A stretch of 64,000 bases of DNA from Gammaproteobacteria bacterium (GCA_015490755.1 WFXF01000002.1:8433-72432); one strand, 5' to 3'; positions 30,954 to 64,000 are shown, counted from the stretch's first letter. Notes: a model not told the origin generated them from the sequence alone. A program made the numbers and translations.

Positions 30954-31020
30954 CTGAACTTTGAACCGAAGTAAAAGAGCAAGTCAGAGTGTAGAAGTTA
31001 TTTCGTGAACGTTCCTAAGT

Positions 31021-31110: not shown

Positions 31111-31120
31111 GTTTTGGATG

Positions 31121-31148: not shown

Positions 31149-31186
31149 GTGTATCTAATGTATGCACAGAAAAAAGAGGTTATCTT

Positions 31187-31450
31187 ATGAGCAAAACCGC
31201 ATCTATCAATATGCGTGTTGAGCCTAGCCAGCACGAACTTTTAACAAAGGCATCAAGAATTCTACATAAAGATAGAAGTGCCTTTATTTTAGATATTGCC
31301 TGTCGAGAAGCAAAAAATGTACTGCTGGATCAACGTTTGTTTTTATTAGAAAGTGAGGCTTTTGAAAAGTTTGAGCAGGCTTTAAATACTCCACTGGCTG
31401 AAAACAGTAGACTAGAGCAACTTATGGCTGAGCCGTCACCGTGGGATTAA
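31187..31450 (+). CDS. DUF1778-family antitoxin of the TacA/AtaR/KacA type (RHH fold)
   Basis: 87 aa. INMRVEPSQHELLTKAS…SAFILD…A…VL… matches the DUF1778 consensus. It overlaps the toxin gene by 10 bp. Confidence 0.88.
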   Translation: MSKTASINMRVEPSQHELLTKASRILHKDRSAFILDIACREAKNVLLDQRLFLLESEAFEKFEQALNTPLAENSRLEQLMAEPSPWD

Positions 31451-31938: not shown

Positions 31939-32100
31939 GAGCCTGTCCGAGAATGAAAAGTCTACTGCGGAAAATCCATTTCGGCCATATTTGGTGTAAA
32001 TTTTCGTTAAATAGAACAACTATTCGCCTCAAATTTACACCAAATCTGCCATCAAAATGGCTTTCCCTCGCTACGACTTCCATTCTCGGACAGGCTCCTA
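31938..32100. repeat. 163-bp palindromic MITE-like element with 17-bp terminal inverted repeats (GAGCCTGTCCGAGAATG … CATTCTCGGACAGGCTC)
   Basis: Left and right TIRs, and internal inverted segments (ATTTGGTGTAAATTT / AAATTTACACCAAAT), are directly visible. It starts at the toxin stop codon. A second partial copy lies at 51147-51254. Confidence 0.7.
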
Positions 32101-32307: not shown

Positions 32308-32892
32308 ATGGTTATGAGTGAAAGTAGCACAAAACAAATTAAAGTATGGGATGGCCTTGTGCGCGGTTTTCACTGGCTGATGCTGCTCTCTTTTGTGGGC
32401 GCTTATATTACTAGCCAGTCAGGAATGCAGCAAACTCATATTTTGATTGGCTACTTCATCTGTTTATTACTGATTATTCGTACTGTGTGGGGCTTTATCG
32501 GAAGCAAACATGCGCGCTTCTCTGATTTTGTTGCTTTACCTTCACATGTATGGGCTTATCTGCAAGCCAGCTTTAGAAACAGTCCCCCTCATTATTTTGG
32601 TCATAATCCAGCTGGTGGCTGGATGGTGTTGGCTTTGATGGGGGCGCTTTTGTTGATGTCTGTGAGTGGAGTGATTCTTGTCTCTGTAATCGAATTTGAA
32701 GGGCCACTACTGAATTTATTGTCTGGTATGAGTGATCAGTGGGCCTATCGCTATGAAGAGCTGCATGAAGTGGCACTTAACATCTTGTGGTTGTTGATCG
32801 CAGGGCATTTAGTGGGTGTGGTCGTTGCATCAATTCAACATAAAGAAAATCTGCTACGTGCCATGGTCAGTGGGTATAAAATTATAAAATAG
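32308..32892 (+). CDS. cytochrome b561 family protein (CybB/YceJ-like, PF01292)
   Basis: 194 aa with four TM helices and conserved His (…FHWLMLL…, …GHLVGVV…) in the Ni/Fe-hydrogenase b-type cytochrome fold. Confidence 0.85.
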   Translation: MVMSESSTKQIKVWDGLVRGFHWLMLLSFVGAYITSQSGMQQTHILIGYFICLLLIIRTVWGFIGSKHARFSDFVALPSHVWAYLQASFRNSPPHYFGHNPAGGWMVLALMGALLLMSVSGVILVSVIEFEGPLLNLLSGMSDQWAYRYEELHEVALNILWLLIAGHLVGVVVASIQHKENLLRAMVSGYKIIK

Positions 32893-32904
32893 ATATGAGG
32901 GAAA

Positions 32905-33462
32905 ATGATGAAAAAGTATTTAGCGATCTGCTGCATATTATTTAGCTGGAATTGCTCTGCTCAAGCTCAGGAATACATGCCAGAACACTTTTTGGATTTG
33001 TCTGTTAAGCCGCAACCGTATACATCCTATATTCAATTAGCCCAGCTTGATACGGCAAATTTAAATGCTACCCATGAAGGCCATAATGAAGAGAAGAAAC
33101 CCCTGTTTAAATCCAGGCCTGTGACTTTGAATAAAGTGCATAAATATCTTGGTTACGCTTCAATGGTAAGTGCTGTATTGACAGGGTTGTCACCCAAAAC
33201 AGCCGGGGGTCCTCATGAGCTTTTTGGTACAGCCGCAGCCGCTTTTGGTGCGGCAGCTGTGTTAAGCGGTTTTGCTTTTCATTATGAAGATATCAATTTG
33301 GCGGGTGGTTTTGGCGACCCGGATAACTTGCATATGCTTCTTGGCATTTTAGGAACCGCAGGTTATGCCGTTGCTGTGAGTAGTGGTGAAGATGGTGGGC
33401 ATGGTGGTCCTGGTACTCTTGGTGCGCTCAGCATGGCTATGGCTATTAAATTAACCTGGTAG
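32905..33462 (+). CDS. hypothetical protein: signal peptide, a roughly 70-aa periplasmic segment, then Gly/Ala-rich TM helices flanked by His residues
   Basis: 185 aa with no recognisable family. Tightly coupled (a 12-bp gap) between the b561 gene and the c-type cytochromes. Confidence 0.6.
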   Translation: MMKKYLAICCILFSWNCSAQAQEYMPEHFLDLSVKPQPYTSYIQLAQLDTANLNATHEGHNEEKKPLFKSRPVTLNKVHKYLGYASMVSAVLTGLSPKTAGGPHELFGTAAAAFGAAAVLSGFAFHYEDINLAGGFGDPDNLHMLLGILGTAGYAVAVSSGEDGGHGGPGTLGALSMAMAIKLTW

Positions 33463-33472
33463 GAGCTTAAGA

Positions 33473-33865
33473 ATGAATAAAATATTAATTTTTGTGGTTG
33501 CAATACTCTTCTCATCAATTGCATTGGCGACAACCCCCATTGATCAACGTATGGCTGATTATAACCCTGATGGTAATCTGATATTTGATGCTAAACGTGG
33601 TGAAGATTTATGGAATCAGAAGCGTATGGTTGATGGCAAACAGCGTGATTGTAACGCTTGCCACGGTAAAGATCTCACACAGCCGGGTGAGCATGTAAAA
33701 AGTGGCAAAGTGATTAAGCCTATGGCCTATTCAGTCAATAAGGAGCGTTTCACTAAACTGAAAAAGGTCAAAAAGTGGTTCAAACGTAATTGTAAATGGA
33801 CTTATGGACGCGAGTGCACCACTCAAGAGAAAGGTGATTTGCTTAAATACTTATCTCAATTTTAA
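33473..33865 (+). CDS. monoheme c-type cytochrome (single CxxCH; SHP/DUF1924-like)
   Basis: A signal peptide and one CNACH haem-binding motif; 130 aa. Confidence 0.75.
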   Translation: MNKILIFVVAILFSSIALATTPIDQRMADYNPDGNLIFDAKRGEDLWNQKRMVDGKQRDCNACHGKDLTQPGEHVKSGKVIKPMAYSVNKERFTKLKKVKKWFKRNCKWTYGRECTTQEKGDLLKYLSQF

Positions 33866-33881
33866 ACAGGGCTGAAATATT

Positions 33882-34448
33882 ATGACTAAAAGACTAACAA
33901 TATTATCTATAGTGACTCTCTTGGGGCTGGGAATCAATACGTCGGTCTTTGCAGATGGTGAAAGTTTTTTTGATTGGTTGTTGACTACGGATTCGCGTAA
34001 CGAAATCAAACCCATGCAGAATGAGTTATATAATGAGGAGTGCAGCGACTGTCACTTTCCTTATCAGGCGGGCCTATTACCGGAAGCCTCTTGGAAAAAG
34101 CTGCTTGACCCTAAAGCACTGGAAGACCATTTTGGTGATAATGCTGAATTAGATGATGAAACAAGGAGTGCAATATTGGATGCTTTGATTGCGGATTCGG
34201 CCGATAAATCACGATATAAGCGTTCCAAAAAAATTATGTCATCACTGGGCGAAAATGAAGTGCCCATGCGTATTATTGATATTCCTTATATTAAGCGTAA
34301 GCATCATGAAATTTCTGATAAACTCATCACTGGAAATGACAAGGTGAAATCATTAAGTTTTTGCGATGCATGTCATCAAAAAGCAGATGAGGGAATCTAT
34401 GATGATGACAGCGTGGTAATTCCTGGGCATGGTAACTGGACGTGGTAA
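33882..34448 (+). CDS. diheme cytochrome c (DHC family)
   Basis: A signal peptide and two CxxCH motifs (CSDCHF and CDACHQ) about 105 aa apart, as in DHC. Confidence 0.8.
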   Translation: MTKRLTILSIVTLLGLGINTSVFADGESFFDWLLTTDSRNEIKPMQNELYNEECSDCHFPYQAGLLPEASWKKLLDPKALEDHFGDNAELDDETRSAILDALIADSADKSRYKRSKKIMSSLGENEVPMRIIDIPYIKRKHHEISDKLITGNDKVKSLSFCDACHQKADEGIYDDDSVVIPGHGNWTW

Positions 34449-34468
34449 TAACCGTGGAAAATTGAATC

Positions 34469-35131
34469 ATGCGTATACTTCTGGTTGAAGACGATCCGCA
34501 GTTGGGCGATGGCATTCGTACCGGTCTGCAACAGGTCAGTTATGCTGTAGATTGGTTACGTGATGGCTTGGGCGCTTTGCATAGTCTGGAAGTCGAAAAC
34601 TTTGATATGGTGATACTCGATCTGGGTTTGCCACGTATGGATGGTCTCAGTGTACTGGAGAAAATTCGTGCTTCCGGCAACGATGTACCCATATTGATTT
34701 TAACAGCGAGAGACACTGTTGCAGATCGTGTCAAAGGGCTTGACAGCGGTGCCGATGATTATTTGGCAAAACCATTTGATCTGGATGAGTTGTGCGCTCG
34801 AATAAGGGCATTGAGTCGTCGTCACAGTGGCCGGGCATCCTCATTAATCAAGTACCGTGATATCGTTTTGGATCCAATGGCTCACAGCCTCAATAAAAAC
34901 GGTGAAGAGATAAATCTATCAACCCGAGAATTTAAAATTCTACAAATTCTGTTTGAAAATATCGGTCGTGTCTTGTCCAGAGAGCGCATTGAAGAAAGCT
35001 TGTTCGGCTGGGATGATTCACTTGAAAGTAATGCCACCGAAGTTCATATTCATCATCTGCGCAAAAAATTGGGCAAAGATCTTATTGTGACTATTCGCGG
35101 TGTTGGTTACATGATCGCTAAAGAGAGTTGA
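34469..35131 (+). CDS. OmpR/PhoB-family DNA-binding response regulator
   Basis: A receiver domain (DD…D…K) plus a winged-helix trans_reg_C domain. Confidence 0.93.
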   Translation: MRILLVEDDPQLGDGIRTGLQQVSYAVDWLRDGLGALHSLEVENFDMVILDLGLPRMDGLSVLEKIRASGNDVPILILTARDTVADRVKGLDSGADDYLAKPFDLDELCARIRALSRRHSGRASSLIKYRDIVLDPMAHSLNKNGEEINLSTREFKILQILFENIGRVLSRERIEESLFGWDDSLESNATEVHIHHLRKKLGKDLIVTIRGVGYMIAKES

Positions 35132-36483
35132 TGAAACCCCGTTCAATCCGTCAAAACTTATTATTATTGGTATTGGGGGCAGTATTCATCTCTTGGGCAG
35201 TAGTTGCTCTGTTTGTCTATAAAAGTGCTAAACATGAAACTGAAGAGGTTTATGATGCACATCTGGTTCAAAGTGCCAAGTTGTTAGCCTCATTAATCAG
35301 GTATGAGCAGGAAAAGAGTCATCAGCTACAGGTTGAGATGGATGACTTTCTACCCATAGCACATAAATACGAATCTAAAATATCTTTTATTGTTTATTAT
35401 GGTGATGGAAAGGTAATGGTTCGTTCAGCATCGGCTCCAATACTGCCGGAGATTGAATCTTTCAATAATTTCAAACAGATCGAAGTTGATGGCGTCATTT
35501 GGTATACCTATAACCTTCGTGACCCCAAGACAAACTTACTTATTCAAACCGCTCAACGTTATGATGTCCGCCAGGAACTGATTAACTATATTAGTAGTAG
35601 CGTATTAGGTGTAATGCTGCTTTCTCTGCCGTTTATCGCAATTTTGATCTGGATTACTATTGGTCGAGGCCTGCGCCCATTGGTTCTGCTGGCAGATTCT
35701 ATATCGGGCCGATCAGTACAGCAGTTGGAGCCGATTACACTCGAAAGAGTGCCTACTGAAGCACAGCCTATTGTTTATGCTTTGAACTCTCTTTTTAATC
35801 GCTTGTCGCAAGCTTTTGAAAAAGAGCGACGCTTTACTGCGGATGCGGCTCATGAGTTGCGTACACCATTGTCAGGTATAAAAACCCAGGCACAGGTGGC
35901 TCTGCGATCAACAGAAAACAAGCAGCGACAGCAAGCGATAGTGCAAGTGATTACGGGCGTTGAACGTACAACCAAGCTGGTCAATCAGCTGTTAATTCTT
36001 GCCAGAGTTGATGCTGAGCAACATATCGTTAAAACTGAGCTGAACCTGAAACAGCTATGCGCGACCGTGATTAGCGAACAGATTGTTTCAGCTCTGAGTA
36101 AAAATATAGATATCAGTCTGGAAGGTGAGTCACTTGTAACCATAAATGGTAATGAAGAGTTGATACATATTTTGATTGCGAATGTAATCAATAATGCAAT
36201 ACGTTATACGCCCAGCGAAGGGCGTATTATTGTCAGTGTAACAAGTGATGCGCAGGGTATAGTGTTTGAGGTGAAAGATTCCGGTTTTGGTATATCTAAA
36301 TCATTGCAGACAGAAGTTTTTAATCGTTTTAAACGTGGTGAGCATTCAGATATTTCTGGTAGCGGATTGGGGTTATCAATAGTGTTGCGAATCTCCGAGC
36401 TACACCGTGCAAGAATTCAGCTGGGTGAAGGTTTGGATAATGCAGGGCTTAGTGTCAAAATCACTTTTGAACAAACTGCGTAA
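35128..36483 (+). CDS. sensor histidine kinase (two TM, HAMP, HisKA, HATPase_c)
   Basis: H-box AHELRTPL and G1/G2 boxes (GSGLGLSIV). Overlaps the regulator gene by 4 bp. Confidence 0.92.
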   Translation: MMKPRSIRQNLLLLVLGAVFISWAVVALFVYKSAKHETEEVYDAHLVQSAKLLASLIRYEQEKSHQLQVEMDDFLPIAHKYESKISFIVYYGDGKVMVRSASAPILPEIESFNNFKQIEVDGVIWYTYNLRDPKTNLLIQTAQRYDVRQELINYISSSVLGVMLLSLPFIAILIWITIGRGLRPLVLLADSISGRSVQQLEPITLERVPTEAQPIVYALNSLFNRLSQAFEKERRFTADAAHELRTPLSGIKTQAQVALRSTENKQRQQAIVQVITGVERTTKLVNQLLILARVDAEQHIVKTELNLKQLCATVISEQIVSALSKNIDISLEGESLVTINGNEELIHILIANVINNAIRYTPSEGRIIVSVTSDAQGIVFEVKDSGFGISKSLQTEVFNRFKRGEHSDISGSGLGLSIVLRISELHRARIQLGEGLDNAGLSVKITFEQTA

Positions 36484-36500: not shown

Positions 36501-36932
36501 TTATATCTTTACGTAATGGATTCGCCCTTGTTCCGTTAATTGAATATTCAACCTCTCTGAGCGATGCCAATTCGCTAATTTTTTTGGGCTGACCTTAAAG
36601 TAGTGTGCTAATTCATTTTGGTGAATAATGCTCTGCCGTTTTTTTCGATTGGCATGGCGGTTATGTAACAGGATATTGTATTTGATCCACAACCAAAAAC
36701 TCACAATTATTGTAGTGATGAGTGACAAAAGGGCTATAAATATTTCAATATTGATCCCTCGTTCATCAATACTTATGGCTGACAGGTCAATACCCGCAAA
36801 TGTGAGTAGCGGTTTAAGTGCGGGTAGTAGCAAATAGATCCACAGCATCCATAATACGAGCGTTATCGAGCTTAGTGTAATCCTTTGTGGTATGCCTTGG
36901 AGATGGGGGTTTTGGATGATTAACGTGTTCAT
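36501..36932 (-). CDS. pgaD: poly-beta-1,6-N-acetyl-D-glucosamine biosynthesis protein PgaD
   Basis: 143 aa with two TM helices, directly after pgaC (1-bp overlap). Confidence 0.8.
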   Translation of the reverse strand: MNTLIIQNPHLQGIPQRITLSSITLVLWMLWIYLLLPALKPLLTFAGIDLSAISIDERGINIEIFIALLSLITTIIVSFWLWIKYNILLHNRHANRKKRQSIIHQNELAHYFKVSPKKLANWHRSERLNIQLTEQGRIHYVKI

Positions 36933-38194
36933 TAGCGTATTCCTCTGTCAGGGCTGACCCAGGTGGCTCGTGAGCTGCGCTGGGTTAATAGTGTTTTGGG
37001 AAGTGCTACAGTCATGGTTAACAGATTGATTAACCAGTAGACCAGGGGGTACCAGATCATCCAGTAATAAAGTCTGCCCAGGCTTTTTTCATAGCGACCA
37101 TCAATATAGAAGCTCACAGCAAACTGAATGAGGCAGGTCAAACCGAGTAGAAGGCCTGCAGAACTTGGTATGAAGGAAAATGCCGTCATACCTTCTGGAT
37201 GTGGAATGAATGGCATCAGTGCCCATAGTATGATTAGGGATATGACCCCATAGGTCCACAAAATGCTGATGAAATATTCAGTCAATAATAACCACAAGCG
37301 TCGTTGGCGCAGACGTATGACTTGTGGCAGATAGCGAATAAAGACTTCGACACCTCCTTGTGCCCAGCGAAGGCGCTGTTGCCATAGACCCTTGAGTGTT
37401 TCCGGCATTAAAATCCAGCATAAAGCGTTTGGCTCGAAACGGATGTCCCACCCTTTTAATTGCAGCTTCCAGGTTATATCTATGTCTTCAGTAATTGCAT
37501 CTACGCTCCAATAATCAGCATCTTGCAAAGCAGATTTTCGAAATCCGGCAATGACACCAGAAATAGAGAACAGACGGCCATAGACACGTTGAGCACGCTT
37601 TATAAGGCCAACAATGGAAGAGAATTCACCGACTTGTATTTTGCCAAGAAGGGTAGAGCGAGTGCGTACACGAGGGTTGCCGGTTACAGCACCGACGCGA
37701 GGGCTGCTAAGGAAATGCCGCATGATCCAGCCGGTGGCATTGCTATCAAGCAGGGCATCACCATCAATACAGACGAGGAATTCATTAGATGACACCATCG
37801 CACCCATACGTAGAGCCATGGCTTTACCCTGGTTTTCTTCCAGGTGTACGACGCGTAAGCGGGAGTACTTTTTATTCAGTTTATCCAGTAATTCACCAGT
37901 GTTATCAGTACTTCCATCATTGATAGCAATAATGTCAAAATAAGGGTAGTTTTGTCTGTTCAGTGCCGCGATGGTTTCACTTAAATTATCACCTTCGTTA
38001 TGACAAGGAACAAGTATGCTGACGTGAGGATAGGCTGGCAGACTGTTCAGTATGCTCCCACCGTTAGGCTGGTTTCGTTCCCACTTGATGTAGTATATGA
38101 TGCCGCCGATCATCCAGACATAGGCCATCAGCAATGGATAGTAATAGGCAAAGCTGAGCGTTGAACTTAGGTAGAGAGGGAGCCAGTTTTCCAT
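36932..38194 (-). CDS. pgaC: poly-beta-1,6-N-acetyl-D-glucosamine synthase (GT2)
   Basis: A GT2 catalytic domain (D, DxD, QxxRW = QQRLRWAQG) flanked by TM helices. Confidence 0.93.
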   Translation of the reverse strand: MENWLPLYLSSTLSFAYYYPLLMAYVWMIGGIIYYIKWERNQPNGGSILNSLPAYPHVSILVPCHNEGDNLSETIAALNRQNYPYFDIIAINDGSTDNTGELLDKLNKKYSRLRVVHLEENQGKAMALRMGAMVSSNEFLVCIDGDALLDSNATGWIMRHFLSSPRVGAVTGNPRVRTRSTLLGKIQVGEFSSIVGLIKRAQRVYGRLFSISGVIAGFRKSALQDADYWSVDAITEDIDITWKLQLKGWDIRFEPNALCWILMPETLKGLWQQRLRWAQGGVEVFIRYLPQVIRLRQRRLWLLLTEYFISILWTYGVISLIILWALMPFIPHPEGMTAFSFIPSSAGLLLGLTCLIQFAVSFYIDGRYEKSLGRLYYWMIWYPLVYWLINLLTMTVALPKTLLTQRSSRATWVSPDRGIR

Positions 38195-38196
38195 GG

Positions 38197-39639
38197 TTAT
38201 TTCCTCTTGTTAAGTTCTGGTATTGACAATGACGCGTGTATATTGCGTACAGTTTTGAGTGTCGGACGATACAGGCGGGCACGTTCGGCCAGAGCATCGG
38301 CCCATTGATTCAAGCTCTCATGGTTGCTTTGGTCGGAATCATAATGAAAAGCCAGGCCATCAATATGGGTGTATTTGGTGAGGTCTTCGTAGATATCACC
38401 GACAAGTTGCAAGGCTTGCTGGCTGTTTTTCGATACGAGTTGATTCAATGGAAAATCATAGGCCATGAGAGGCAATGAAGCGTAGACCTTTACTCCAGTG
38501 CGAGTTCGTAGTTGCCAGGCCACACGGCTGAATAGATCGGCCTGCATCGGAAGGTGGCGATTGGGAAAATAGAGTGCATCAGCATTGCCGTCTTTATTGG
38601 TATCGGTATAAGCTGATAGATAGACGGTATTGGCTTTAATTGCCTTAACACGATCTAGCAGAAATCCCAGATTCTTTTCTTGTTGTTTAGGGTTTGGGTC
38701 GTAAATATCATCGAGACTCAGATAGACTGAACGTACGGGTTCAATATCGGGTTTGTAGTGGTTGTTGATTTGCCATACAAAATCAGCCAGTGTGATGCCG
38801 TGGCCAATCAATAGGCGGTTTAAACTGCCAAGGTTTTTAATATCTATTGGGCCATCTTCAAGGCTCATTGTGATGGGCATACCAACTTCATTGGCAATGT
38901 TGTTGGTAATGCGATTATAAGCGCCGTAAGGCCACACCATGACTCGTGGTTTATGACCTGTTTTACGAGCAATAAGGTCAGAGTTTCGTTGCAGATCGTT
39001 GCGAATACGTTGTTTGTATTGCTCGTCACTTTCGTAGCTATTTGTATCGGCGTTATAATGTCGGCTGACAGCTGCTGGCCGACTGTTTTTTTGTGGGTTT
39101 GCGATGATGCCATGATGCAGGTTATAGCTATGTGAAGCTATTTCCACGTATCCAGAGTTTGCCATCTCGCGTATCTGATCCCAATTTAGAAAATATTTAC
39201 GTGCTATGAGATCGCTGCCATACATCACTTGTCTGCTCGCAGGTACTTCTATCCATTTTCCAACGACTGCGATCACGGCTTGATAGTCAAATATGCGCAA
39301 CAATGGATAGACCTGTTCATACATTCCACGATAGGCATCATCAAAAGTGAGTAGAACGGCCTTATCTGGTAGAGCGCGCTTTCCCTTCTGTGCATCCAGC
39401 AAATCATCAATTCCTACGGATTCATAACCGTGCTCTTTGAGCCAGGAAAACTGCTTGGCCAATTCAGATGTTGTTATTGCCATGGCTGTGAAATTTTTAT
39501 CATGATTAAGCGAATGGCTTGTTTCGTGGTACGAAAGTACGATTAAATCTGCTTTGACAGGTGCAGTGATCATCACTATTAGTAATGACACCATGCCCCA
39601 TAGGTAATGCTCTGTTTTTTTTATTTTTTTCATGGTCAA
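38197..39639 (-). CDS. pgaB: poly-beta-1,6-N-acetyl-D-glucosamine N-deacetylase PgaB (shorter than E. coli PgaB)
   Basis: A signal peptide, an N-terminal CE4 deacetylase domain (TFDD…) and a C-terminal GH-like domain; 480 aa. Confidence 0.85.
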   Translation of the reverse strand: MTMKKIKKTEHYLWGMVSLLIVMITAPVKADLIVLSYHETSHSLNHDKNFTAMAITTSELAKQFSWLKEHGYESVGIDDLLDAQKGKRALPDKAVLLTFDDAYRGMYEQVYPLLRIFDYQAVIAVVGKWIEVPASRQVMYGSDLIARKYFLNWDQIREMANSGYVEIASHSYNLHHGIIANPQKNSRPAAVSRHYNADTNSYESDEQYKQRIRNDLQRNSDLIARKTGHKPRVMVWPYGAYNRITNNIANEVGMPITMSLEDGPIDIKNLGSLNRLLIGHGITLADFVWQINNHYKPDIEPVRSVYLSLDDIYDPNPKQQEKNLGFLLDRVKAIKANTVYLSAYTDTNKDGNADALYFPNRHLPMQADLFSRVAWQLRTRTGVKVYASLPLMAYDFPLNQLVSKNSQQALQLVGDIYEDLTKYTHIDGLAFHYDSDQSNHESLNQWADALAERARLYRPTLKTVRNIHASLSIPELNKRK

Positions 39640-41720
39640 AACCTAACGTAAAAGTTCATAAATCCACGAGTGAAGTACTCCTTGATACCATCGTAGACGG
39701 GGCGAGAGCGTTTGATTCCATAACTTAAACTCAGTTGTTGACTGAAACTCCAGTGGTGCTCATATCCCAGCATCCACGTGGATTCTTTATTAAAGTTTTT
39801 CTGATTGCTTGATCCCATATTGATTAAAAGACGTTGACGCATCGACTTTTCATAATAGCGATAAGTCAACCATTCATTGTTAAACTCCAGTTCGATAGAG
39901 CTTTGTGTGGCGGGATTGAAGTAAATGGCGTTATTGATTGTGTTGGTTTGGCTATAGAGGTTGAGCTCTCCTTCCAGTTTGTAGTGCAGACCCTGGAATA
40001 GGCGTTGGCGGCCAAAAGCGAAAAAGGTATTTCGTTTGTTGCCATCATCAAAGCCCATATGTTGCAATGAAATGCCTAAACTGCGACTTTCGTGAAAACG
40101 ATACTCTGTGCTTGCTGTTAGTGACCAGGCTTCAATGTTATCCAGGTCGGCGCGTAAGGGGGTTTGCTCACTGAAGCTTTTCATGGAAAGGCTTCCATAC
40201 CAATGATCCGTAGGTATCCAGTCACCTTGCAGTGATATGCCTGGAGAGCCATCACCACCACTGATGTTGCCGCGAAGCATAATATCCTGTTGTTGATAAT
40301 GCAGCCCGATAGCTAAACGGCTACGGTTGACTTTTTGTCCAGAAAAATCAGCCTGGCTTTGGGAAATATAAGCAAAAGGGCGTAACCCAAGGCTCCATGG
40401 CTGATCATAATAATAGGCGATAAATCCTAGGTCTTTGTTGCCTTTATCAATATTAGTGCCACTACTGGAGCCGCCATTGACTTCCAGCCATATCTCGCGC
40501 ATTTTTTGAATCTTTGATTCGCGTACCAAGTTTTGTATAGAAGGGTCATCGCCATACAGCGTTTGCAGTGGAGCCAGTGCCATATCAGCTCCAGCGAAAT
40601 CACCACGAGCAGTGAGCACACTGACAATACCCTTAAGAGCTCCCAGGTTTCCTGAATTTTGAGCCAGTACGGAACGGTACTCTTTTAACGCCAATCGTGG
40701 CCAGCCTCGCCATAAATATATATTGGCAAGATTGTTTCTTATGTCTACGTTAGTCGGGGATTGTTTCAATAATCTCTTGAGACCATACTCCGCGGCATCT
40801 AACTTTCCAACATAGGCGCGTGCAATGCTAGCAGTATTCTGAGCGTATAATTTATCAATATTAAGCTGTCGCTCTTTACTGCCAGGAGGCCATATCCACT
40901 GTGGTAGCGACGCTGCAAAAGCATCAATATGGGTGAGTGATTTTTTATAGCGACCAGACTCTAAATAAGCATAGTATAGAGAGTATTGGGCATCTAAATT
41001 TTCGGAGTAATTTTTAAGGGATTGTTCCAGTAAGGTGGTTGCACGTTCTGGTTGGCGTAACATGAGGTAAGCATCACCAACGATTGCTTGCACGTAGGGT
41101 GGGAAAGTTTTTACACTCAATTGCTCGTAGAGTGCAATGGCTTTGTGCATATAGCGCCGATTGTGATAGGCGGCTATAAGGTCGAAACGGTTACGCAGAG
41201 CCGCAGAAGATGCTTTGTCAGTTATTTTTACATACTGCTCTTGCAGTCGCTTAATGGCGGAATCGGTGTTTTGATAGCGTTTGCTGGGGTCAATTGTGGC
41301 CAATCGTCCCCAACGTATCTCCTCTGCCGCTTGATCTCCCACCATTTTCTGCCACTCGTCAGGGCTAAAAAGATCACGATTGTCATGCGCCAGGCGTAGT
41401 GCCTGGTGAGGGGCTCCCAAGTGTAGTAAAGCTAAAATCCGGCCACGTTTAGCGCCGCGATGGCTGGGTTGTATTGTGAGTAGTCGATCATAAATAGCAA
41501 TGGCGGCGGCATAATTGTGGTTGGTTTCTTTTTCATGGGCTTGTGTCTCCAGTAGTTCCACAGAGCCCAGAGGCGGTTTGGCTTCTGTTGTTTCCGAGTA
41601 CATAACTACGCAGAGAAACAATGCAGCAATAGATCGCAATAACAAAGAAGAAGGTTGTGGGCTGTAGTTTAATTGTCCACATGTTCTGGTATTTTTTATT
41701 TTAATTATATTCATCATCAT
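39636..41720 (-). CDS. pgaA: PGA export outer-membrane porin PgaA (TPR + beta-barrel)
   Basis: 694 aa with N-terminal TPR repeats and a C-terminal porin domain ending in an aromatic residue (…YVRF). First gene of the pga operon. Confidence 0.85.
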   Translation of the reverse strand: MMMNIIKIKNTRTCGQLNYSPQPSSLLLRSIAALFLCVVMYSETTEAKPPLGSVELLETQAHEKETNHNYAAAIAIYDRLLTIQPSHRGAKRGRILALLHLGAPHQALRLAHDNRDLFSPDEWQKMVGDQAAEEIRWGRLATIDPSKRYQNTDSAIKRLQEQYVKITDKASSAALRNRFDLIAAYHNRRYMHKAIALYEQLSVKTFPPYVQAIVGDAYLMLRQPERATTLLEQSLKNYSENLDAQYSLYYAYLESGRYKKSLTHIDAFAASLPQWIWPPGSKERQLNIDKLYAQNTASIARAYVGKLDAAEYGLKRLLKQSPTNVDIRNNLANIYLWRGWPRLALKEYRSVLAQNSGNLGALKGIVSVLTARGDFAGADMALAPLQTLYGDDPSIQNLVRESKIQKMREIWLEVNGGSSSGTNIDKGNKDLGFIAYYYDQPWSLGLRPFAYISQSQADFSGQKVNRSRLAIGLHYQQQDIMLRGNISGGDGSPGISLQGDWIPTDHWYGSLSMKSFSEQTPLRADLDNIEAWSLTASTEYRFHESRSLGISLQHMGFDDGNKRNTFFAFGRQRLFQGLHYKLEGELNLYSQTNTINNAIYFNPATQSSIELEFNNEWLTYRYYEKSMRQRLLINMGSSNQKNFNKESTWMLGYEHHWSFSQQLSLSYGIKRSRPVYDGIKEYFTRGFMNFYVRF

Positions 41721-53862: not shown

Positions 53863-53919
53863 GCTGTCAAAGCGAATGGTTCTGGGTTAAACTAAAAACC
53901 AAGGCATATTCTGCAACGT

Positions 53920-54100
53920 TTGCCAGCTTGTCTGAGATGGTCTTGGGCCTAATTATATCTCTCCGGGAACGCGTCCCCGATGCTGTTGTGCATGCCCGTT
54001 TTACGGGTCGCCTGATGCATCATATGTGTGCCCACTTGAACCCTTGGTTCAAGACTGATGACAGCAGCGGCGCTTGTGGATATGCCGCTCTTTTTGGTTC
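53920..54100 (+). ncRNA. ssrS: 6S RNA (SsrS); ends are approximate
   Basis: Lies between zapA and ygfA. It contains UCUGAGAUG near the 5' end, and ACAUGUGUGCCCACUUGAACCCUUGGUUCAAGACUGAUGACAGCAGCGGCGC resembling the E. coli 6S 3' half (…CACCUUGAACCAAGGGUUCAAGGGUUACAGCCUGCGGCGGC…). A hairpin (AGCGGC…GCCGCU, 54066-54089) is followed by TTTTT. Confidence 0.6.
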
Positions 54101-54120: not shown

Positions 54121-54732
54121 ATGTCCCATTCAAAAAAGCAGTTACGCCGGCAGATACGCGATGCTCGTCGTGCATTGAGTGACTCTGATCGTTGTGAGGC
54201 AGCCGCTCGTGCTGCTCAATTACTGTTGAAAAGCAGGTTATTTCAGCGTTCACGTCATATTGCACTCTATCTGCCCAGTGATGGTGAGTTAGATTCTACA
54301 CCACTGTTACATGCTATCTGGCGCTCAAATAAACTGAGCTATTTGCCCATGGTACAGCCACCTTACTCTGGCCGCCTCCGATTTGCTTCTTACAATGCTA
54401 AAAGCCGTATGGTAAATAACAGGTATGGTATTCCTGAGCCCTCTGTTTCTGCTTGCACTATTGTGCCAGCCTGGGCTTTGGATCTGGTTCTGTTGCCTTT
54501 GGTTGCCTTTGATGAAAAGGGGTATCGATTAGGTATGGGCGGTGGTTATTATGATCGCACTTTCAATTTTTTATCTTATCGTCAATATTGGCGAAAGCCC
54601 TGTTTGATCGGGTTGGCTTATGACTTTCAAAAAATTGAGGCTGTACCGCGTGAACCCTGGGATATTCCATTGTCTGGAATTGTGACAGAAAACAGGTTGT
54701 ATCCGTCAGAATTACTTGCCAATGGTGCTTAA
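54121..54732 (+). CDS. ygfA: 5-formyltetrahydrofolate cyclo-ligase
   Basis: 203-aa MTHFS family (…GMGGGYYDR…). Downstream of 6S RNA as in E. coli. Confidence 0.88.
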   Translation: MSHSKKQLRRQIRDARRALSDSDRCEAAARAAQLLLKSRLFQRSRHIALYLPSDGELDSTPLLHAIWRSNKLSYLPMVQPPYSGRLRFASYNAKSRMVNNRYGIPEPSVSACTIVPAWALDLVLLPLVAFDEKGYRLGMGGGYYDRTFNFLSYRQYWRKPCLIGLAYDFQKIEAVPREPWDIPLSGIVTENRLYPSELLANGA

Positions 54733-57036: not shown

Positions 57037-57516
57037 ATGATGAAAAGAGGTTTTACGTCATCACGTATTGCTCTGTTTATCGTCGGAATGTTTATTTCGC
57101 TTTATAGTTATGCGGATGAAAATAAAAATAAACTGCTTTTTCAACACGAATCAAAACAGATCATTTGTAAAACGCCTGAAGAGGTAAAGCGCCTCTGTGC
57201 CGAATCACTTCAGCTACGCCGCTTAACGCCTCTTAAAGCGCCAGAAAAGTTGCTATTTCCGGACTATTCGTCAAACTTGCAAAATCCGTTGTCGCTGGTT
57301 CATAAGCATGCAGGAAGCCCTGTCTTTCGTTTAAATATGCAAGATGAACGCCCCGTTATTGGTATGGGTTTGATTAATCAAGAGATCTTAAGAATCAGTT
57401 TCTTGCTGGGAACGGATCTGGATATTGAGCAGGCGACTGCTGAAGAGTTGATGCAATCGTTGACTGAATTCGAATTGAAGCCAAATATTGGTGTGGGTTT
57501 TGAGAGTTATTGGTAG
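57037..57516 (+). CDS. hypothetical secreted protein
   Basis: 159 aa with an N-terminal signal peptide (IALFIVGMFISLYSYA) and no recognisable family. Confidence 0.5.
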   Translation: MMKRGFTSSRIALFIVGMFISLYSYADENKNKLLFQHESKQIICKTPEEVKRLCAESLQLRRLTPLKAPEKLLFPDYSSNLQNPLSLVHKHAGSPVFRLNMQDERPVIGMGLINQEILRISFLLGTDLDIEQATAEELMQSLTEFELKPNIGVGFESYW

Positions 57517-58383: not shown

Positions 58384-60150
58384 ATGAAACAACTAATAAA
58401 AAACCTGCTTTGTGATGCTGTTTTTCAACTGCAACAGGAAGGCGTGCTGCCAAAAGATTTGAAGCTGGATATTCGGGTTGAACGTGGACGCAATAAAGAG
58501 CTGGGTGATTTTGCCTGCAATCTTGCTCTGGTATTATCTAAATCAGCACGTTGTAAACCGCGTGATTTGGCAGAAAAGCTGGTGCAGGCATTGCCTGAGT
58601 CAGCTTCAATATCCAGGATTGAGGTTGCTGGCCCGGGATTCATTAATTTTTTTATGGCACCAGCAGCATTCCAGAAAGTTATTTTAGCTGTGCATGAAGC
58701 CGGTGAAGCTTATGGGCGCAGCACGATTGGCCGAGGGCGTAGAGTTCAGGTTGAGTTTGTTTCTGCCAATCCGACCGGGCCATTGCATGTCGGTCACGGT
58801 CGAGGTGCAGCATACGGTGCCACAGTCGCAGATTTGCTGGTGGCTGCCGGTTTTGAAGTGCATCGTGAATATTATGTGAATGATGCGGGTCGCCAGATGA
58901 ATATTTTGGCGACCAGTGTCTGGTTGCGTTATCTGGAGCTTTGTGGCGAAGAAATTATATTTCCAGTCAGTGGCTATCGTGGTGAATATATACGCGACAT
59001 TGGAGCGGCATTGAAAAATAGTCATGGAAATACATTTTTGCATGCAGCTCAAACAGTGATGGCTGATTTGCCTGAAGATGCAATCGAAGAGGGTCGCGGC
59101 GATAAAGAGGCGCATATTGATGGCCTGATTCAGCGAGCGAGACAGCTATTAGGTGAGCAGGGTTATCGCACAGTATTTAATGCGGGGCTGGAATCTATTC
59201 TGGGCGATATCCGTAAAGATCTTGAAGAGTTTGGTGTTGTTTACGAGGAGTGGTTTTCCGAGCGCTCTCTGGTTGAAAGTGGTTTGGTTGAAAAAACAAT
59301 TGAGCGACTCAAAGGCTGCGGTCATCTTTATGAAAAAGAGGGCGCGTGGTGGTTTAAATCAACCGATTTTGGCGATGAAAAAGATCGTGTTGTGGTGCGG
59401 GATAATGGTGAAACCACCTATTTTGCATCTGATGTCGCCTATCATCTGGATAAAGCAGAGCGTGGTTATGAAAAGGTGATTGATGTTTGGGGGGCTGATC
59501 ATCATGGTTATGTTCCGCGTGTTAAGGCAGCCCTTGCAGCGATGGGTAAACAGCCTGATCTGCTGGATGTTTTACTGGTTCAATTTGCTAACCTTTATCG
59601 CGATGGTAAAAAAGTACAGATGTCGACTCGCAGTGGTTCATTTGTCACGTTGCGTGAATTGCGTGAAGAGGTGGGTAAAGATGCCGCACGTTTTTTCTAT
59701 GTGATGCGCAAATGCGAGCAGCATATGGATTTTGATCTGGAGTTAGCCAAATCACAGTCGAATGAAAATCCGGTTTATTACGTGCAATATGCACATGCAC
59801 GTATTTGCAGTGTGATGCGGCAATTAAAGGAGCGAGAGCTGAGTTGGAACAGAGAGCAAGGTGAAGCTCATCTGTCGTTGCTGACTGAAGCTCATGAGCA
59901 AGCATTAATGGCCAGTCTTGCGCGTTATCCTGAGCTGCTCGAAACAGCGGCATTAAATCATGAGCCGCATCAGGTTGTTTATTACTTGCGCGATCTGGCG
60001 ACCGAGTTTCATACTTACTATAATGCTCATCAGTTTATTGTTGATGATGAAAAGTTACGAAATGCACGTTTTTCACTCATACTAGCGGTAGGTCATGTAT
60101 TGAAAAACGCTTTATTATTGTTAGGCGTTTCTGCACCGGAAAGTATGTAA
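58384..60150 (+). CDS. argS: arginine--tRNA ligase
   Basis: Class I HIGH (PTGPLHVGH) and KMSK-like (MSTRSG) motifs; 588 aa. Confidence 0.96.
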
Positions 60151-60152: not shown

Positions 60153-60767
60153 GTGGCTACAAAAAATAAAAAAAACCAGCGTGTTTATGATCGTAGGCGC
60201 TCAGATAAAAAAGCGGCCGAGAGAAGAGCAGATCAGAAAAAAAGAACGCCGGGCTGGGTCTGGCTTTTGGTGGGTCTTATTCCTGGGCTTGGTGTGGCAC
60301 TTTTAGTTTATTTAATGAAAGACGAGTCTGAAGTAACACTGCATGAAACAAAAGTGACAATATCTTCCGCATTACAGCAAGAGGAGCCTGTTGCGCCTTT
60401 GCCTCCGCAACCTGAAGCGCGTTATGACTTTTATAAGTCATTGCAAGATATGAAAATTTTTATCCCTGATGAAGAAGAGATCGTAACCAATAAAAGATCA
60501 AACTCTGAAATCAAAGAAATAAAACAGCCGGGTGCTTATATTTTTCAGGTTGCTTCATTTAAAGAGTATAAAATGGCTGATGCATTGAAAGCAAAACTGG
60601 CTATACTGGGTATCAAGTCGGGTATACAGACCGTTACTATTGAAAATGGATCTACCTGGCATCGTGTTCGCATTGGCCCTATTCATGAATTGCCACGCTT
60701 GCATGAGGTTAAATTACAGCTTCAGCAAAATGATATTGAATTTATTTTGCTGAAATTAAAGGGGTAA
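60153..60767 (+). CDS. SPOR domain-containing protein (FtsN-like: basic N-terminus, TM, Pro/Gln-rich linker, C-terminal SPOR)
   Basis: The C-terminal SPOR fold is …YIFQVASFKEYKMADALKAKLAILGI…WHRVRIGP…. Confidence 0.8.
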   Translation: MATKNKKNQRVYDRRRSDKKAAERRADQKKRTPGWVWLLVGLIPGLGVALLVYLMKDESEVTLHETKVTISSALQQEEPVAPLPPQPEARYDFYKSLQDMKIFIPDEEEIVTNKRSNSEIKEIKQPGAYIFQVASFKEYKMADALKAKLAILGIKSGIQTVTIENGSTWHRVRIGPIHELPRLHEVKLQLQQNDIEFILLKLKG

Positions 60768-60777
60768 GAAAGGCGTT

Positions 60778-63700
60778 ATGGGTACTAATTCTTATTTGAT
60801 TGGTATTGATGTCGGTTCGACGACGGTCAAGTGTGTGGTTGTTGAGCCTGAAAGTTTTTCTATTGTATGGCGTTGCTATGATCGGCACGAAGGGCTGCAA
60901 GGGCCAAAACTTCTTGAATCACTAGAGCGCATGGAGTCAGAAAATCCCTTTCTTAAAGAAGGCCAGCATCTGGCCTATATTACAGGCTCTGGTGGCACAG
61001 CCGTTGCCGGGCATGTGGGCGCAAGGTTTATTCAAGAGGTGAATGCTGTCACGCTTGCCGTTGAACGTTTACATCCTGATGTCAACAGTGTCGTCGAACT
61101 GGGAGGGCAGGATGCAAAAATTATCATATTTCAGCCCGGCGCCAATGCTGAGGAGCGGCGAGTTGTCACCTCAATGAATGATAAGTGTGCTTCAGGTACG
61201 GGCGCAACTATTGATAAGTGTCTGTTGAAAGTGGGTCTCAGCTCTGGGCAAGCCACCCAAATTCCCTTTTTACCCGAAAAACTACACCATGTGGCCGCAA
61301 AGTGTGGGGTGTTTGCAGAAACCGATGTTGTCAACCTGGTGAAGTCGGGTGTGCCATCTGAAGAGATTGTCAATTCATTGGCTGATGCCATTGTGATGCA
61401 AAATCTTACGGTGTTGACACGAGGTAATACGCTGCTGAGTAACGTATTGTTGCTGGGCGGCCCTAATACCTACTTACCCTTTTTGCAGGCTTGTTGGCGC
61501 AAGCGAATTATAGATACATGGAACGAGCGTGGTTATGCCGTTCCAGACATTCCGCCTGAAGAGCTGATTAAAGTACCTGATGATGCACAATATTATGCCG
61601 CATTCGGCGCGGTCGTATTTGGTGCGCAGGAGCAGGCTGAAGGGGCTGACTATTGTGGTGTTGAACGGCTTCGCACTCATTTGAGTGGAGAGGGCCAGCG
61701 TGCATCCTCTCACCACACAGGTCCGGGTTTATGGAAAACAGAAGAAGATCTGGATGAGTTCAAGAAAACCTATGTAAAACCTGCATTTAAAGCTCAGCAG
61801 TTTAATAGGGAAGAGACTGTTCGTGTTTTTGTGGGAATTGATGGTGGTTCAACCACCACTAAAGCTGTGTTGCTTGATGAACAAGGCGAGGTGATTACAA
61901 AAGAGTATCTGCTCTCCACAGGCAACCCCATTAATGATAGCAATATCATTTTCAAAAAACTGAAAGAGTATATCTCGCAGCAATCTGCTCCTATTGAAAT
62001 TGCAGGTTGTGGTGTGACGGGCTACGCTGGTGATGTACTTGAAAAAGCATTAGGCTGTGATGCCAATATTGTTGAAACGATTGCACATATGCAAAGTGCC
62101 AAGCGTTTCTGTGGTGATGATATTGACGTGGTTTGTGATGTCGGTGGTCAGGATATTAAAGTCCTTTTCTTGCAGCATGGTGACATAAAAAGCTTCCGCC
62201 TCTCAAATCAGTGCTCAGCGGGCAATGGTATGCTTTTGCAAGCAATGGCACAGCAGTTTGGTGTCAAAGTCGAACAGTTTGCGGATGTTGCATTTGAAGC
62301 AAAAAGTTCGCCCAATTTTAGTTATGGCTGTGCGGTTTTTCTCGATAGTGATCGTGTCAATTTTCAGAAAGAGGGTTATTCCCGAGAAGAGCTGTTTGCA
62401 GGTCTGGCTCGTGTATTGCCCAAAAATATATGGCAATACGTTGTTCAAATTCCACGCCTTGCCGAACTGGGACGTAAGTTTGTTCTGCAGGGCGGCACCC
62501 AATATAACCTGGCGGCGGTTAAAGCGCAGGTTGATTATATTAAAGCGCGTGTGCCCAATGCTGAAGTGATTGTACACCCCTATTGCGGTGAAGGCGGTGC
62601 GATTGGTGCGGCACTTGAGGCCATCAGGGTTGTAAAACTTCAAGGAAAATCTTCATTTATCGGGCTTGATGCCGCGCTCAATGTACAATTTACGACACGC
62701 ACGGATGAGGAGACGCGTTGCAACTTTTGCACCAATAGTTGCTCGCGTACCTTTATTGATATCGAACTACCTGCTTTGCCTCCTGTCAGGCATATTGCCG
62801 GGTTTGCCTGTGAAAAGGGCGAGGTCGAGTCTAAACAGGAGGTAGTTGTACAAGAGAAACAGAGGCGAAAGCTTAAAGCGAATTATCCTAATATGGTGGA
62901 TGAAGAGTCGAAGCTGGTTTTTCGTCATGTCTACAAAGCCACCTTGCTTCCTGATACTTCAACACAGATCGAAACCACTCAACCTGAAAAGCGTTGGTTT
63001 ACTATTCACCATAAAAAAGTAAAACGTAATTTTCAGCGCAGCTCAGAGGCTGCTATGCAGCGCCGTCAACAAATTAGAGTTGGAATACCGCGTGCGCTGA
63101 ATATCTATACGATTGCACCTTTTATGCGGACGTACCTTGAGGCTTTGGGCATTACTTCGCACAATATTGTATTTTCTGATGAAACATCGGAAGAGTTGTG
63201 GCGTGATGGAGGAAAGTATGGATCAATCGATCCCTGCTTTCCTGCCAAGGTCTCACAAGCCCATATCTATAATTTGCTGTACAAGAAACAGACAAGCCGT
63301 AAATCACTTGACTATGTCTGGTTTCCGAGTGTGATTCAGCTCTCTAACTTTTGCACAAATGTTATTGGAAATACGACTTGCCCCATCGTGGCCGGTACGC
63401 CTAATGTTGTTAAGGCATCGTTTACAAAGGAAAAAAACCTGTTTGATCAGTGTGGTGTAGACTATGTTGATAGTGCGCTTGATTTTAATCACTTCTCTCT
63501 ACTCAAACGACAACTTTTTGATACATGGGCTTCACACCTTGATATCACAGAAGATGAGAGTGACTGGGCATGTGAACAGGGTCAAAAAGCGATGTTGCAT
63601 ATTGACGCAAAAGTGCAAAGCCGTGGTATGGAGTTGCTCAAATCCATGGAAGATAACAGTCGTGTCGGTTTGTTAATGCTGGGGCGACCTTATCATAATG

Positions 63701-64000
63701 ACCCCGGAATTAATCATGAAGTATTAAGTGATTTTCAGGCGCTGGGTTATCCGGTGCTCTCCATCCGCTCGATTCCTAAAGATCCAGCTTATCTTGATCA
63801 ATTTTTTGGTAAGGAGATTAGATCAGGAAAAATCGAAGATGCTTTTGATACTCGTGATGTCTGGCCTGAAAGTTACTCTGTGAATAGTGCTCAGAAAGTA
63901 TGGGCTGCAAAATTTGCTGCGCGCCACCCCAATATTGCTGTTGTTGATTTTTCAAGTTTTAAGTGTGGTCACGATGCACCGACGTATGGTTTGGTTAACC
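60778..64000 (+). CDS. large CoA-substrate-specific enzyme activase-like protein: two BadF/BadG/BcrA/BcrD (ASKHA) ATPase domains fused to a Cys-rich region and a DUF2229 / 2-hydroxyglutaryl-CoA dehydratase D-like domain. 5' partial; it runs off the window.
   Basis: The frame is open from the ATG at 60778 to the window end (1074+ codons), and was absent from the ORF track because it has no stop. Two ASKHA phosphate-1 motifs (IGIDVGSTTVKCVVV and VGIDGGSTTTKAVLLD) and a CNFCTNSC Cys cluster are visible. Confidence 0.8.
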   Translation, partial: MGTNSYLIGIDVGSTTVKCVVVEPESFSIVWRCYDRHEGLQGPKLLESLERMESENPFLKEGQHLAYITGSGGTAVAGHVGARFIQEVNAVTLAVERLHPDVNSVVELGGQDAKIIIFQPGANAEERRVVTSMNDKCASGTGATIDKCLLKVGLSSGQATQIPFLPEKLHHVAAKCGVFAETDVVNLVKSGVPSEEIVNSLADAIVMQNLTVLTRGNTLLSNVLLLGGPNTYLPFLQACWRKRIIDTWNERGYAVPDIPPEELIKVPDDAQYYAAFGAVVFGAQEQAEGADYCGVERLRTHLSGEGQRASSHHTGPGLWKTEEDLDEFKKTYVKPAFKAQQFNREETVRVFVGIDGGSTTTKAVLLDEQGEVITKEYLLSTGNPINDSNIIFKKLKEYISQQSAPIEIAGCGVTGYAGDVLEKALGCDANIVETIAHMQSAKRFCGDDIDVVCDVGGQDIKVLFLQHGDIKSFRLSNQCSAGNGMLLQAMAQQFGVKVEQFADVAFEAKSSPNFSYGCAVFLDSDRVNFQKEGYSREELFAGLARVLPKNIWQYVVQIPRLAELGRKFVLQGGTQYNLAAVKAQVDYIKARVPNAEVIVHPYCGEGGAIGAALEAIRVVKLQGKSSFIGLDAALNVQFTTRTDEETRCNFCTNSCSRTFIDIELPALPPVRHIAGFACEKGEVESKQEVVVQEKQRRKLKANYPNMVDEESKLVFRHVYKATLLPDTSTQIETTQPEKRWFTIHHKKVKRNFQRSSEAAMQRRQQIRVGIPRALNIYTIAPFMRTYLEALGITSHNIVFSDETSEELWRDGGKYGSIDPCFPAKVSQAHIYNLLYKKQTSRKSLDYVWFPSVIQLSNFCTNVIGNTTCPIVAGTPNVVKASFTKEKNLFDQCGVDYVDSALDFNHFSLLKRQLFDTWASHLDITEDESDWACEQGQKAMLHIDAKVQSRGMELLKSMEDNSRVGLLMLGRPYHNDPGINHEVLSDFQALGYPVLSIRSIPKDPAYLDQFFGKEIRSGKIEDAFDTRDVWPESYSVNSAQKVWAAKFAARHPNIAVVDFSSFKCGHDAPTYGLVN

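Follow-up and report, generated by a model that had tools for sequence, protein, structure and literature searches.

Two enzyme systems of the benzoyl-CoA reductase/2-hydroxyacyl-CoA dehydratase (BCR/HAD) superfamily, PlsA/PlsR (2021) and Ger (2022), have been described that combine two PF01869 domains and one PF09989 domain with a second reductase- or dehydratase-like module and that turn acyl esters at the sn-1 position of glycerolipids into vinyl or alkyl ethers. PlsA/PlsR of C. perfringens is encoded by the two-gene operon CPE1194/CPE1195, and one fused gene is found in facultative anaerobes such as Enterococcus, Lactococcus and Listeria. The Listeria orthologue appears to be active under anaerobiosis (Goldfine review); activity of Ger has been observed only in anaerobic conditions, and according to the authors in the field the functions of PlsA and Ger are not assignable by sequence alone. 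Here we analyse a gene at the end of a stretch of 64,000 nucleotides from a Gammaproteobacteria bacterium (GCA_015490755.1 WFXF01000002.1:8433-72432), which as a whole is called the window and provides the numbering used throughout. The open reading frame (ORF) at positions 60778-64000 probably codes for the larger of two subunits of a self-activating BCR/HAD superfamily member that is built from four modules and encoded by two genes. The description that suits it best is that of the large subunit in a split PlsA/PlsR-like enzyme that belongs to an uncharacterised, highly conserved and aerobe-compatible sister clade and whose mechanism and fold are not new.

Translation of the plus strand from position 60778 yields 1074 codons without a stop in a frame that runs off the window end. 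The initial annotation had described a truncated giant of over 1074 amino acids (aa) and continuing; the frame is indeed open, but the continuation is short. The full-length protein comprises 1136 aa in a 98% identical homologue (P0001) and in the 93% identical orthologue at 10001-13411 of a locus from a gammaproteobacterial metagenome-assembled genome (MAG; L002), so that about 62 residues can be expected beyond the window instead of an open-ended giant. The orthologues continue over these 62 residues, and neither a frameshift nor a stop codon just past the window end, which had been named as possible grounds for dismissal, was found. Besides the truncation at the window end nothing speaks for a degenerate pseudo-enzyme or a decaying gene, a view that can be considered effectively refuted: all 1074 codons are intact, the G+C content of 0.44-0.45 lies inside the range of the window, all catalytic and cluster residues are invariant, including the ASKHA motifs of both ATPase domains, and the family of the window protein retains about 60% identity, and 64-72% in its ATPase domains, across Gammaproteobacteria, Bacillota, Myxococcota and Verrucomicrobiota.

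The domain composition largely agrees with what had been read from the sequence upon first inspection, namely two tandem ASKHA domains of the BadF/BadG/BcrA/BcrD type, a cysteine-rich segment and a DUF2229/HgdB-like C-terminal region. Two stretches match BcrAD_BadFG (PF01869; E=1.5e-69, best stretch aa 352-615), TIGR00241, acyl-CoA dehydratase activase, is matched in NCBIfam and DUF2229 (PF09989) is detected at aa 767-998 (E=4.3e-44), which gives the architecture designated BBD (two PF01869 plus PF09989) in a single polypeptide; the third family proposed for the Pfam search, PF06050 (HGD-D), is matched by neither the large subunit nor the partner protein described below. The diagnostic motifs GIDVGSTTVK, GIDGGSTTTK and CNFCTNSC are located at aa 9-18, 353-362 and 648-655, respectively. 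Aligned to HgdC (1hux) and MbdQ (9gai), the first ATPase domain, Act1, keeps the GIDVGST, GGQD, NDKCA and CxVFAE motifs, and the nucleotide-binding motifs are intact in both Act1 (GIDVGSTT and ELGGQD) and the second domain, Act2 (GIDGGSTT and DVGGQD). The [4Fe-4S] ligands, whose inspection had been recommended, are equally in place: C137/C176 of Act1 and C479/C518 of Act2 align with the two cysteines of HgdC that hold the bridging cluster, and are invariant in the window family and nearly universal in the superfamily. Judged from these residues, both ATPase domains look competent. The subsequent linker carries C648, C651, C655 and C678, invariant in 34/34 family members, and plausibly binds a fourth cluster, by inference a [4Fe-4S] relay, before the DUF2229 module, Red1, contributes a three-cysteine site composed of C820, C868 and C1063.

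With HgdC, HadI and BCR ATPase subunits as the closest sequence matches and relatives labelled 'CoA activase' or 'acyl-CoA dehydratase activase-related protein' by NCBI, the protein might be taken for a stand-alone giant activase (archerase) that serves a dehydratase or benzoyl-CoA reductase encoded elsewhere, and an activator feeding a dehydratase is indeed what had been proposed. The activase-type ATPase domains are in line with this proposal; the protein itself, however, includes Red1, one of the two halves of the catalytic core, and pairs with Red2, the other half, which is encoded next to it. In the L002 locus, a 475-aa ORF (13421-14848, P0121) begins 9 nt past the stop codon of the large-subunit gene and constitutes the dehydratase-like partner gene that was sought. 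A partner of 475-590 aa is located directly downstream of the large gene in 9/9 related loci (gammaproteobacterial MAGs, a Verrucomicrobiota MAG, Paenibacillus thiaminolyticus, Alicyclobacillus dauci and a Myxococcota MAG; tblastn), with a conservation of 52-61% identity across the same phyla that is on par with the large subunit; among the distant loci the partner shows 52-58% identity. The second reductase-like module typical of PlsR, fused or adjacent, is therefore present in all nine loci. On the other hand, no HgdAB, BcrBC, CoA-transferase or aromatic-degradation genes were found near the pair in the loci examined, and in five distant genomes no conserved third gene surrounds the pair, which resides among unrelated housekeeping genes. 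Together with the missing PF06050 domain, a core-type module inside the protein and a second one always at its side lead us to reject the stand-alone activase as very improbable.

To which lineage of the superfamily the pair belongs can be approached by homology. An exhaustive search of 1.84 billion representatives recovered 1234 proteins at E<=1e-30, in which the window's own family is covered by approximately one representative (P0241, 55% identity), followed by proteins that are mostly unfused and form a graded series (1036-1141 aa, 35-50% identity) and then by numerous fused proteins (1385-1550 aa, 27-33% identity) from anaerobic Firmicutes, for example, Lachnospiraceae. In a midpoint-rooted neighbour-joining tree, which was calculated without the validated enzymes of C. 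perfringens, E. faecalis, T. maritima and D. alkenivorans, two clades are resolved, a mostly unfused clade A that includes the window family and a mostly fused clade B, and the literature-anchored Listeria Pls, judged by its identities, lies in clade B apart from the window family. This 1475-aa fused protein of Listeria monocytogenes was recovered from a chromosome fragment filed under plasmid records and shares 55-58% identity with P0338 and P0323, which represent clade B. Incidentally, the 'plasmids' collection includes several records that represent chromosomes or parts of them, for example those of Listeria monocytogenes (2.9 Mb) with its 394-kb 'plasmid 2', of Fusobacterium vincentii (2.1 Mb) and of Acetoanaerobium noterae (2.6 Mb); NZ_LR134399.1 (L010) is among the chromosomal ones. 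The Listeria enzyme and the window protein are colinear from end to end (E=3e-121), the tail of the former aligns with the partner (26% identity, E=2e-32), and neither Listeria Pls nor the large subunit nor the partner shows a transmembrane segment. All 11 superfamily-conserved cysteines of the large subunit (four bridging, four in the linker, three in Red1) are kept in Listeria Pls and in 67/69 other full-length superfamily sequences aligned with the reference of the window family, to which Red2 adds three cysteines universal in the superfamily, so that the conserved set amounts to four bridging, four linker, three Red1 and three Red2 residues.

Features that set the window family apart from clade B have equally been identified. 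Insertions relative to clade B are found at aa 248-260, 722-758 and 1004-1021, of which the second, gapped in >=80% of clade B and 63% of clade A, is modelled by AlphaFold2 (AF2) with strands at 730-739 and 742-751 and carries a net charge of -2 to +7 that is positive in 30/34 family members. The DUF2229 score amounts to 151 bits in the window protein versus 286 bits in Listeria, and two additional invariant cysteines of the ATPase domains (C148, C453) and two of Red2 (C224, C245) are replaced in nearly all of clade B. The latter two reside on neighbouring helices of the central helical region in the AF2 model of the partner, where a disulfide, a redox switch or an additional metal site is conceivable. 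The distribution of the two clades is instructive in Paenibacillaceae. A search with the Listeria protein retrieved the fused clade B form from many Paenibacillus species at about 60% identity (Enterococcus or Clostridium PlsA not being among the matches listed, which were dominated by Paenibacillus). This form is present in P. odorifer, P. macerans and P. durus (within P0453-P0553), whereas P. thiaminolyticus, P. apiarius, Aneurinibacillus and Brevibacillus possess the split clade A pair (within P0095-P0119), and thus the clades behave as distinct lineages within one family.

The nature of Red2 became accessible by structure. Its AF2 model (pLDDT 78, pTM 0.81) has just six Foldseek matches at E<=0.001, all of them chains of DCCP or BzdNO; additional chains of BzdNO, of the benzoyl-CoA reductase core MbdON and of the 2-hydroxyisocaproyl-CoA dehydratase core HadBC come next at a probability of 0.9-1.0. 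In a profile-profile comparison based on diverse superfamily profiles, Red1 (aa 764-1116) and Red2 (aa 45-469) match each other over 334 columns (probability 94.6%, E=7e-8) with their cysteine motifs in register (C820/C96, C868/C136 or C139 and C1063/C416), a match that is significant only with these diverse profiles, since hhalign with shallow family alignments gave E=0.12. From the register of the cysteines within this match we conclude that the two modules are paralogues forming the halves of a pseudo-symmetric core, comparable to HadBC and BzdNO. Fused genes point in the same direction. Over its whole length the partner matches the C-terminal module of fused homologues (E=5e-26 and 3e-33), and within clade A the 1579-aa protein P0242 has the order Act-Act-Red1-Red2 with a C-terminal tail 50% identical to the partner, while the 1623-aa protein P0251 has the order Red2-Act-Act-Red1 with an N-terminal Red2 of 36% identity (E=3e-96). 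These are independent fusions in both orders, and Red2 joined at either end confirms that Red1 and Red2 function together.

As the top Foldseek matches of the partner are the DCCP chains 7yyl and 6eno (E=1e-5 to 1e-4) and six cysteines are conserved in the clade A partner, a DCCP-like double-cubane reductase for small molecules of the acetylene, azide or hydrazine type, fused to its own reductase, has also been considered. A double-cubane site needs six cysteines in a 3+3 pattern. In the BzdNO structure, on the other hand, the catalytic [4Fe-4S]-OH2 site consists of C95/C128/C380 of BzdO, two residues from the N-terminal and one from the C-terminal alpha/beta domain. Only three of the six partner cysteines are universal across the superfamily, and Red1 (820/868/1063) and Red2 (96/139/416) both display the 2+1 pattern, which identifies the core as HAD/BzdO-like and not DCCP-like. 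The TM scores to DCCP are also low (0.38-0.44). Although no structure matches Red2 better than DCCP, and the ATPase domains find a match in DCCP-R, DCCP itself is a homodimer with a motif of six to seven cysteines per chain, whereas three universal cysteines per module occur here in a heterodimer of diverged paralogues, and the six- or seven-cysteine [8Fe-9S] motif is found in neither module. A double-cubane enzyme is accordingly rejected as highly unlikely.

Other members of the superfamily share parts of this design. With HadBC plus HadI and HgdAB plus HgdC the pair has in common the ATPase fold, the cluster ligands, the HadB/HadC fold of Red2 and three-cysteine sites with an open iron; the activator of those systems is, however, a separate homodimer of single ATPase domains, whereas the window protein fuses two ATPase domains to each other and to Red1 and comes without PF06050, CoA-transferase or fermentation context. 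Class I benzoyl-CoA reductases (BzdNOPQ/MbdONPQ) possess a heterodimeric ATPase pair bridged by one cluster, reminiscent of Act1-Act2, and a pseudo-symmetric two-subunit core, but consist of four separate subunits; the six-cysteine [8Fe-9S] cluster of BzdN finds no support here and an aromatic-degradation context is absent. The separate subunits, PF06050 domain and neighbouring CoA-ester pathway genes that would identify a class I BCR or a classical dehydratase are hence missing, although PF06050 is not a discriminating feature, as it is also undetected by current Pfam in Listeria Pls and in fused clade B representatives. The common BBD core architecture is shared with Ger (T. maritima Tmari_0479; D. 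alkenivorans SHJ90043), to the extent that current homology screens would score the window protein as 'Ger homolog, architecture BBD', and clade A includes Aquificota, a lineage with alkyl-ether lipids. Validated Gers, however, each consist of one fused polypeptide, in the tail of which HGD-D/DUF2229 fragments have been reported, in contrast to the separate and Pfam-less Red2. The closest likeness is to PlsA/PlsR, with the same module order Act1-Act2-(4-Cys)-Red1 plus Red2, a split form known from C. perfringens and the 11 conserved cysteines and end-to-end colinearity with the Listeria enzyme; the window family differs by its low identity, its position in a separate deep clade, its extra insertions and cysteines and its hosts, which include aerobes. 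The initial characterization of such fused giants as largely uncharacterised thus does not hold for the architecture, which PlsA/PlsR and Ger share, but appears true of clade A.

Considering domain architecture, residue conservation, fold relationships, gene pairing and gene fusions, from which we infer cluster content, electron path and chemistry, the pair can with good confidence be viewed as an ATP-driven injector of low-potential electrons, in which an Act1-Act2 pseudo-dimer would feed a two-cluster Red1/Red2 core for carbonyl chemistry of the ketyl-radical type. Act1 and Act2 would fold into an intramolecular pseudo-dimer that clamps one [4Fe-4S] cluster via C137/C176 and C479/C518. Upon reduction by ferredoxin or flavodoxin, binding and hydrolysis of ATP would trigger a conformational switch through which an electron of very low potential is injected, probably relayed by the cluster on the four-cysteine linker (C648/C651/C655/C678) and passed on to the pseudo-symmetric core of Red1 (C820/C868/C1063) and Red2 (C96/C139/C416). 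Each of these modules is predicted to harbour a [4Fe-4S] cluster held by three cysteines, and its open iron, similar to that of HadB and BzdO, may bind the carbonyl of the substrate to give a ketyl-type radical for reduction and/or dehydration.

The architecture-level homology to PlsA/PlsR and Ger makes an acyl ester of a membrane glycerolipid, converted into a vinyl-ether or alkyl-ether lipid, the likeliest single substrate, a choice by analogy that should be regarded as tentative. A number of observations weigh against the assignment as a PlsA/PlsR-like enzyme in general or against its lipid substrate in particular. Clade A branches off deeply on its own in the neighbour-joining tree, no characterised member of clade A has been identified and the validated enzymes have not been placed; identity to Listeria Pls amounts to 28.7% and identity of the window-family Red2 to clade B tails to <=24%. 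The window ends before the partner gene, whose presence in the source genome is deduced from the 93% identical L002 orthologue. The partner has no Pfam match even at E<=10, no NCBIfam match and no match in sequence and profile searches of the PDB, and the fold of Red1 is supported indirectly, as structure searches were swamped by ATPase matches. Moreover, no lipid-metabolism gene is a conserved neighbour in the distant loci, and no report of plasmalogens or ether lipids in Alicyclobacillus and Aneurinibacillus was found in a literature search that also covered Paenibacillus and Brevibacillus and was uninformative.

Several of these points would equally be accounted for by the same machinery acting on a non-lipid substrate, with clade A as a paralogue that reduces or dehydrates another carbonyl such as a CoA or acyl carrier protein (ACP) thioester or a small metabolite. 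Such a function is conceivable in view of the deep separation of the clades at about 28% identity to the Pls anchor, the very divergent Red2 with its clade-specific invariant C224 and C245, the clade-specific insertions, the separate lineages of clade A and clade B forms within Paenibacillaceae, the lack of lipid genes near the pair and the occurrence in aerobes, and the reluctance of the authors in the field to assign PlsA or Ger by sequence applies here as well. However, the only characterised enzymes of the Act-Act-4Cys-Red1-Red2 type use glycerolipid esters, 11/11 cluster cysteines and the overall colinearity are retained and no conserved CoA-transferase, CoA-ligase or pathway neighbour points to a soluble substrate; altogether, a substrate other than a lipid carries a weight comparable to that of the glycerolipid ester. 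In favour of the glycerolipid ester it can be added that clade A also holds proteins of Aquificota and Desulfurobacteriaceae, Aquificae being known producers of alkyl-ether lipids.

The relation of the pair to oxygen is of particular interest. The aerobic-looking context initially ascribed to the gene is not borne out by the window, which encodes PBP2, YhdP, RNase G, pilBCD, pgaABC, rpoN and a cytochrome b561/dihaem cytochrome c cluster and which contains no decisive marker of an aerobic or anaerobic lifestyle in its 64 kb. The link to aerobes comes instead from the genomes of relatives, one locus of which has COX1 and oxygen-dependent coproporphyrinogen oxidase genes nearby and whose named hosts include Alicyclobacillus and Aneurinibacillus. 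Both are aerobic genera, which counts against the assignment. Equally adverse, BCR/HAD enzymes are typically oxygen-labile. On the other hand, PlsA of Lactococcus is reported to work in E. coli under aerobic culture (2025 study), which provides a precedent for oxygen tolerance in the superfamily. Clade A might, as a tentative proposal, comprise oxygen-compatible, ATP-driven, low-potential Fe-S radical enzymes in respiring and even strictly aerobic bacteria, which would perform the 'anaerobic' route to ether or vinyl-ether lipids or another reductive or dehydrative reaction with a different substrate. A role in oxygen tolerance or redox gating is conceivable for C148, C453, the partner residues C224/C245 and the insertions.

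The coordinates of the modules and of other features of the window are collected in Table 1. The large-subunit gene follows argS and a SPOR/FtsN-like gene, as originally described, with the stop codon of the latter at 60765-60767. The three genes are probably located on one transcript; a scan for promoters and terminators performed no better than chance. The argS-SPOR order also occurs in L002 and is absent from the loci of distant genomes, and argS and the SPOR/FtsN-like gene are without functional link to the large-subunit gene. Elsewhere in the window, 6S RNA and the cyclo-ligase gene display the classic ssrS-ygfA arrangement, and the gene cluster at 32308-36483 may represent a redox-sensing or electron-transfer module. 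The lowest G+C content of the window (0.377 at 30001-32000 versus about 0.44 elsewhere) coincides with the region 29919-31938, which could be a small acquired segment. The ORF between the transaldolase gene and yihA/engB has a syntenic counterpart of 163 aa in L002 (6255-6746).

Table 1. Coordinates of the large-subunit gene, its modules and other features in the 64,000-nt window
Feature	Position	Strand	Remarks
Large subunit, Act1-Act2-4Cys-Red1	60778..64000	+	first 1074 of ~1136 codons, cut by window end
Shine-Dalgarno-like motif AAAGG	60769..60773	+	4 nt before ATG at 60778; read from sequence
Act1, BcrAD_BadFG/HgdC-type ASKHA ATPase, aa 6-290	60793..61647	+	Pfam, NCBIfam, alignment to HgdC 1hux and MbdQ 9gai
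Act2, second ASKHA ATPase, aa 348-620	61819..62637	+	cluster ligands C479, C518
Four-Cys linker C648-x2-C651-x3-C655 ... C678, aa 646-681	62713..62820	+	conserved Cys
Insertion in a clade A subset, aa 722-758	62941..63051	+	beta-hairpin, mostly positive net charge
Red1, DUF2229 catalytic-core module, aa 763 to ~1120	63064..64000	+	cut at aa 1074; PF09989 and profile match to partner
argS	58384-60150	+	Pfam and NCBIfam; 2-nt gap to SPOR/FtsN-like gene
SPOR/FtsN-like gene	60153-60767	+	Pfam and NCBIfam; 10-nt gap to large-subunit gene
DUF900 alpha/beta hydrolase	29919-30923	-	low-GC region
GNAT acetyltransferase	31441-31938	+	low-GC region
Cytochrome b561	32308-32892	+	gene cluster 32308-36483
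185-aa ORF	32905-33462	+	gene cluster 32308-36483; no Pfam match
DUF1924	33473-33865	+	gene cluster 32308-36483
Dihaem cytochrome c	33882-34448	+	gene cluster 32308-36483
OmpR-type response regulator	34469-35131	+	gene cluster 32308-36483
Histidine kinase	35128-36483	+	gene cluster 32308-36483
PgaC-like glycosyltransferase, PgaB-like deacetylase, PgaA-like beta-barrel porin	36932-41720	-	poly-N-acetylglucosamine export locus
6S RNA (RF00013)	53905-54086	+	Rfam, 76 bits, E=3e-13; directly upstream of 5-formyltetrahydrofolate cyclo-ligase
5-formyltetrahydrofolate cyclo-ligase	54121-54732	+	Pfam, NCBIfam
159-aa ORF between transaldolase gene and yihA/engB	57037-57516	+	no Pfam/NCBIfam match

BCR/HAD-type enzymes are textbook examples of oxygen-sensitive catalysts of strict anaerobes. 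The conservation of the present gene pair as a constant unit with about 60% identity across phyla, including aerobes, indicates a strongly selected function. PlsA/PlsR and Ger, the sole characterised relatives with four modules, define the 'anaerobic' route to bacterial ether lipids, and screens for Ger/PlsA homologues, which are used to predict environmental producers of ether lipids and brGDGTs (branched glycerol dialkyl glycerol tetraethers), would count clade A genes, while domain-based screens miss one half of the enzyme, the Pfam-less Red2 family. If clade A performs another reaction, predictions of ether-lipid and brGDGT producers are inflated; if clade A makes ether lipids, the oxygen boundary of the pathway must be redrawn.

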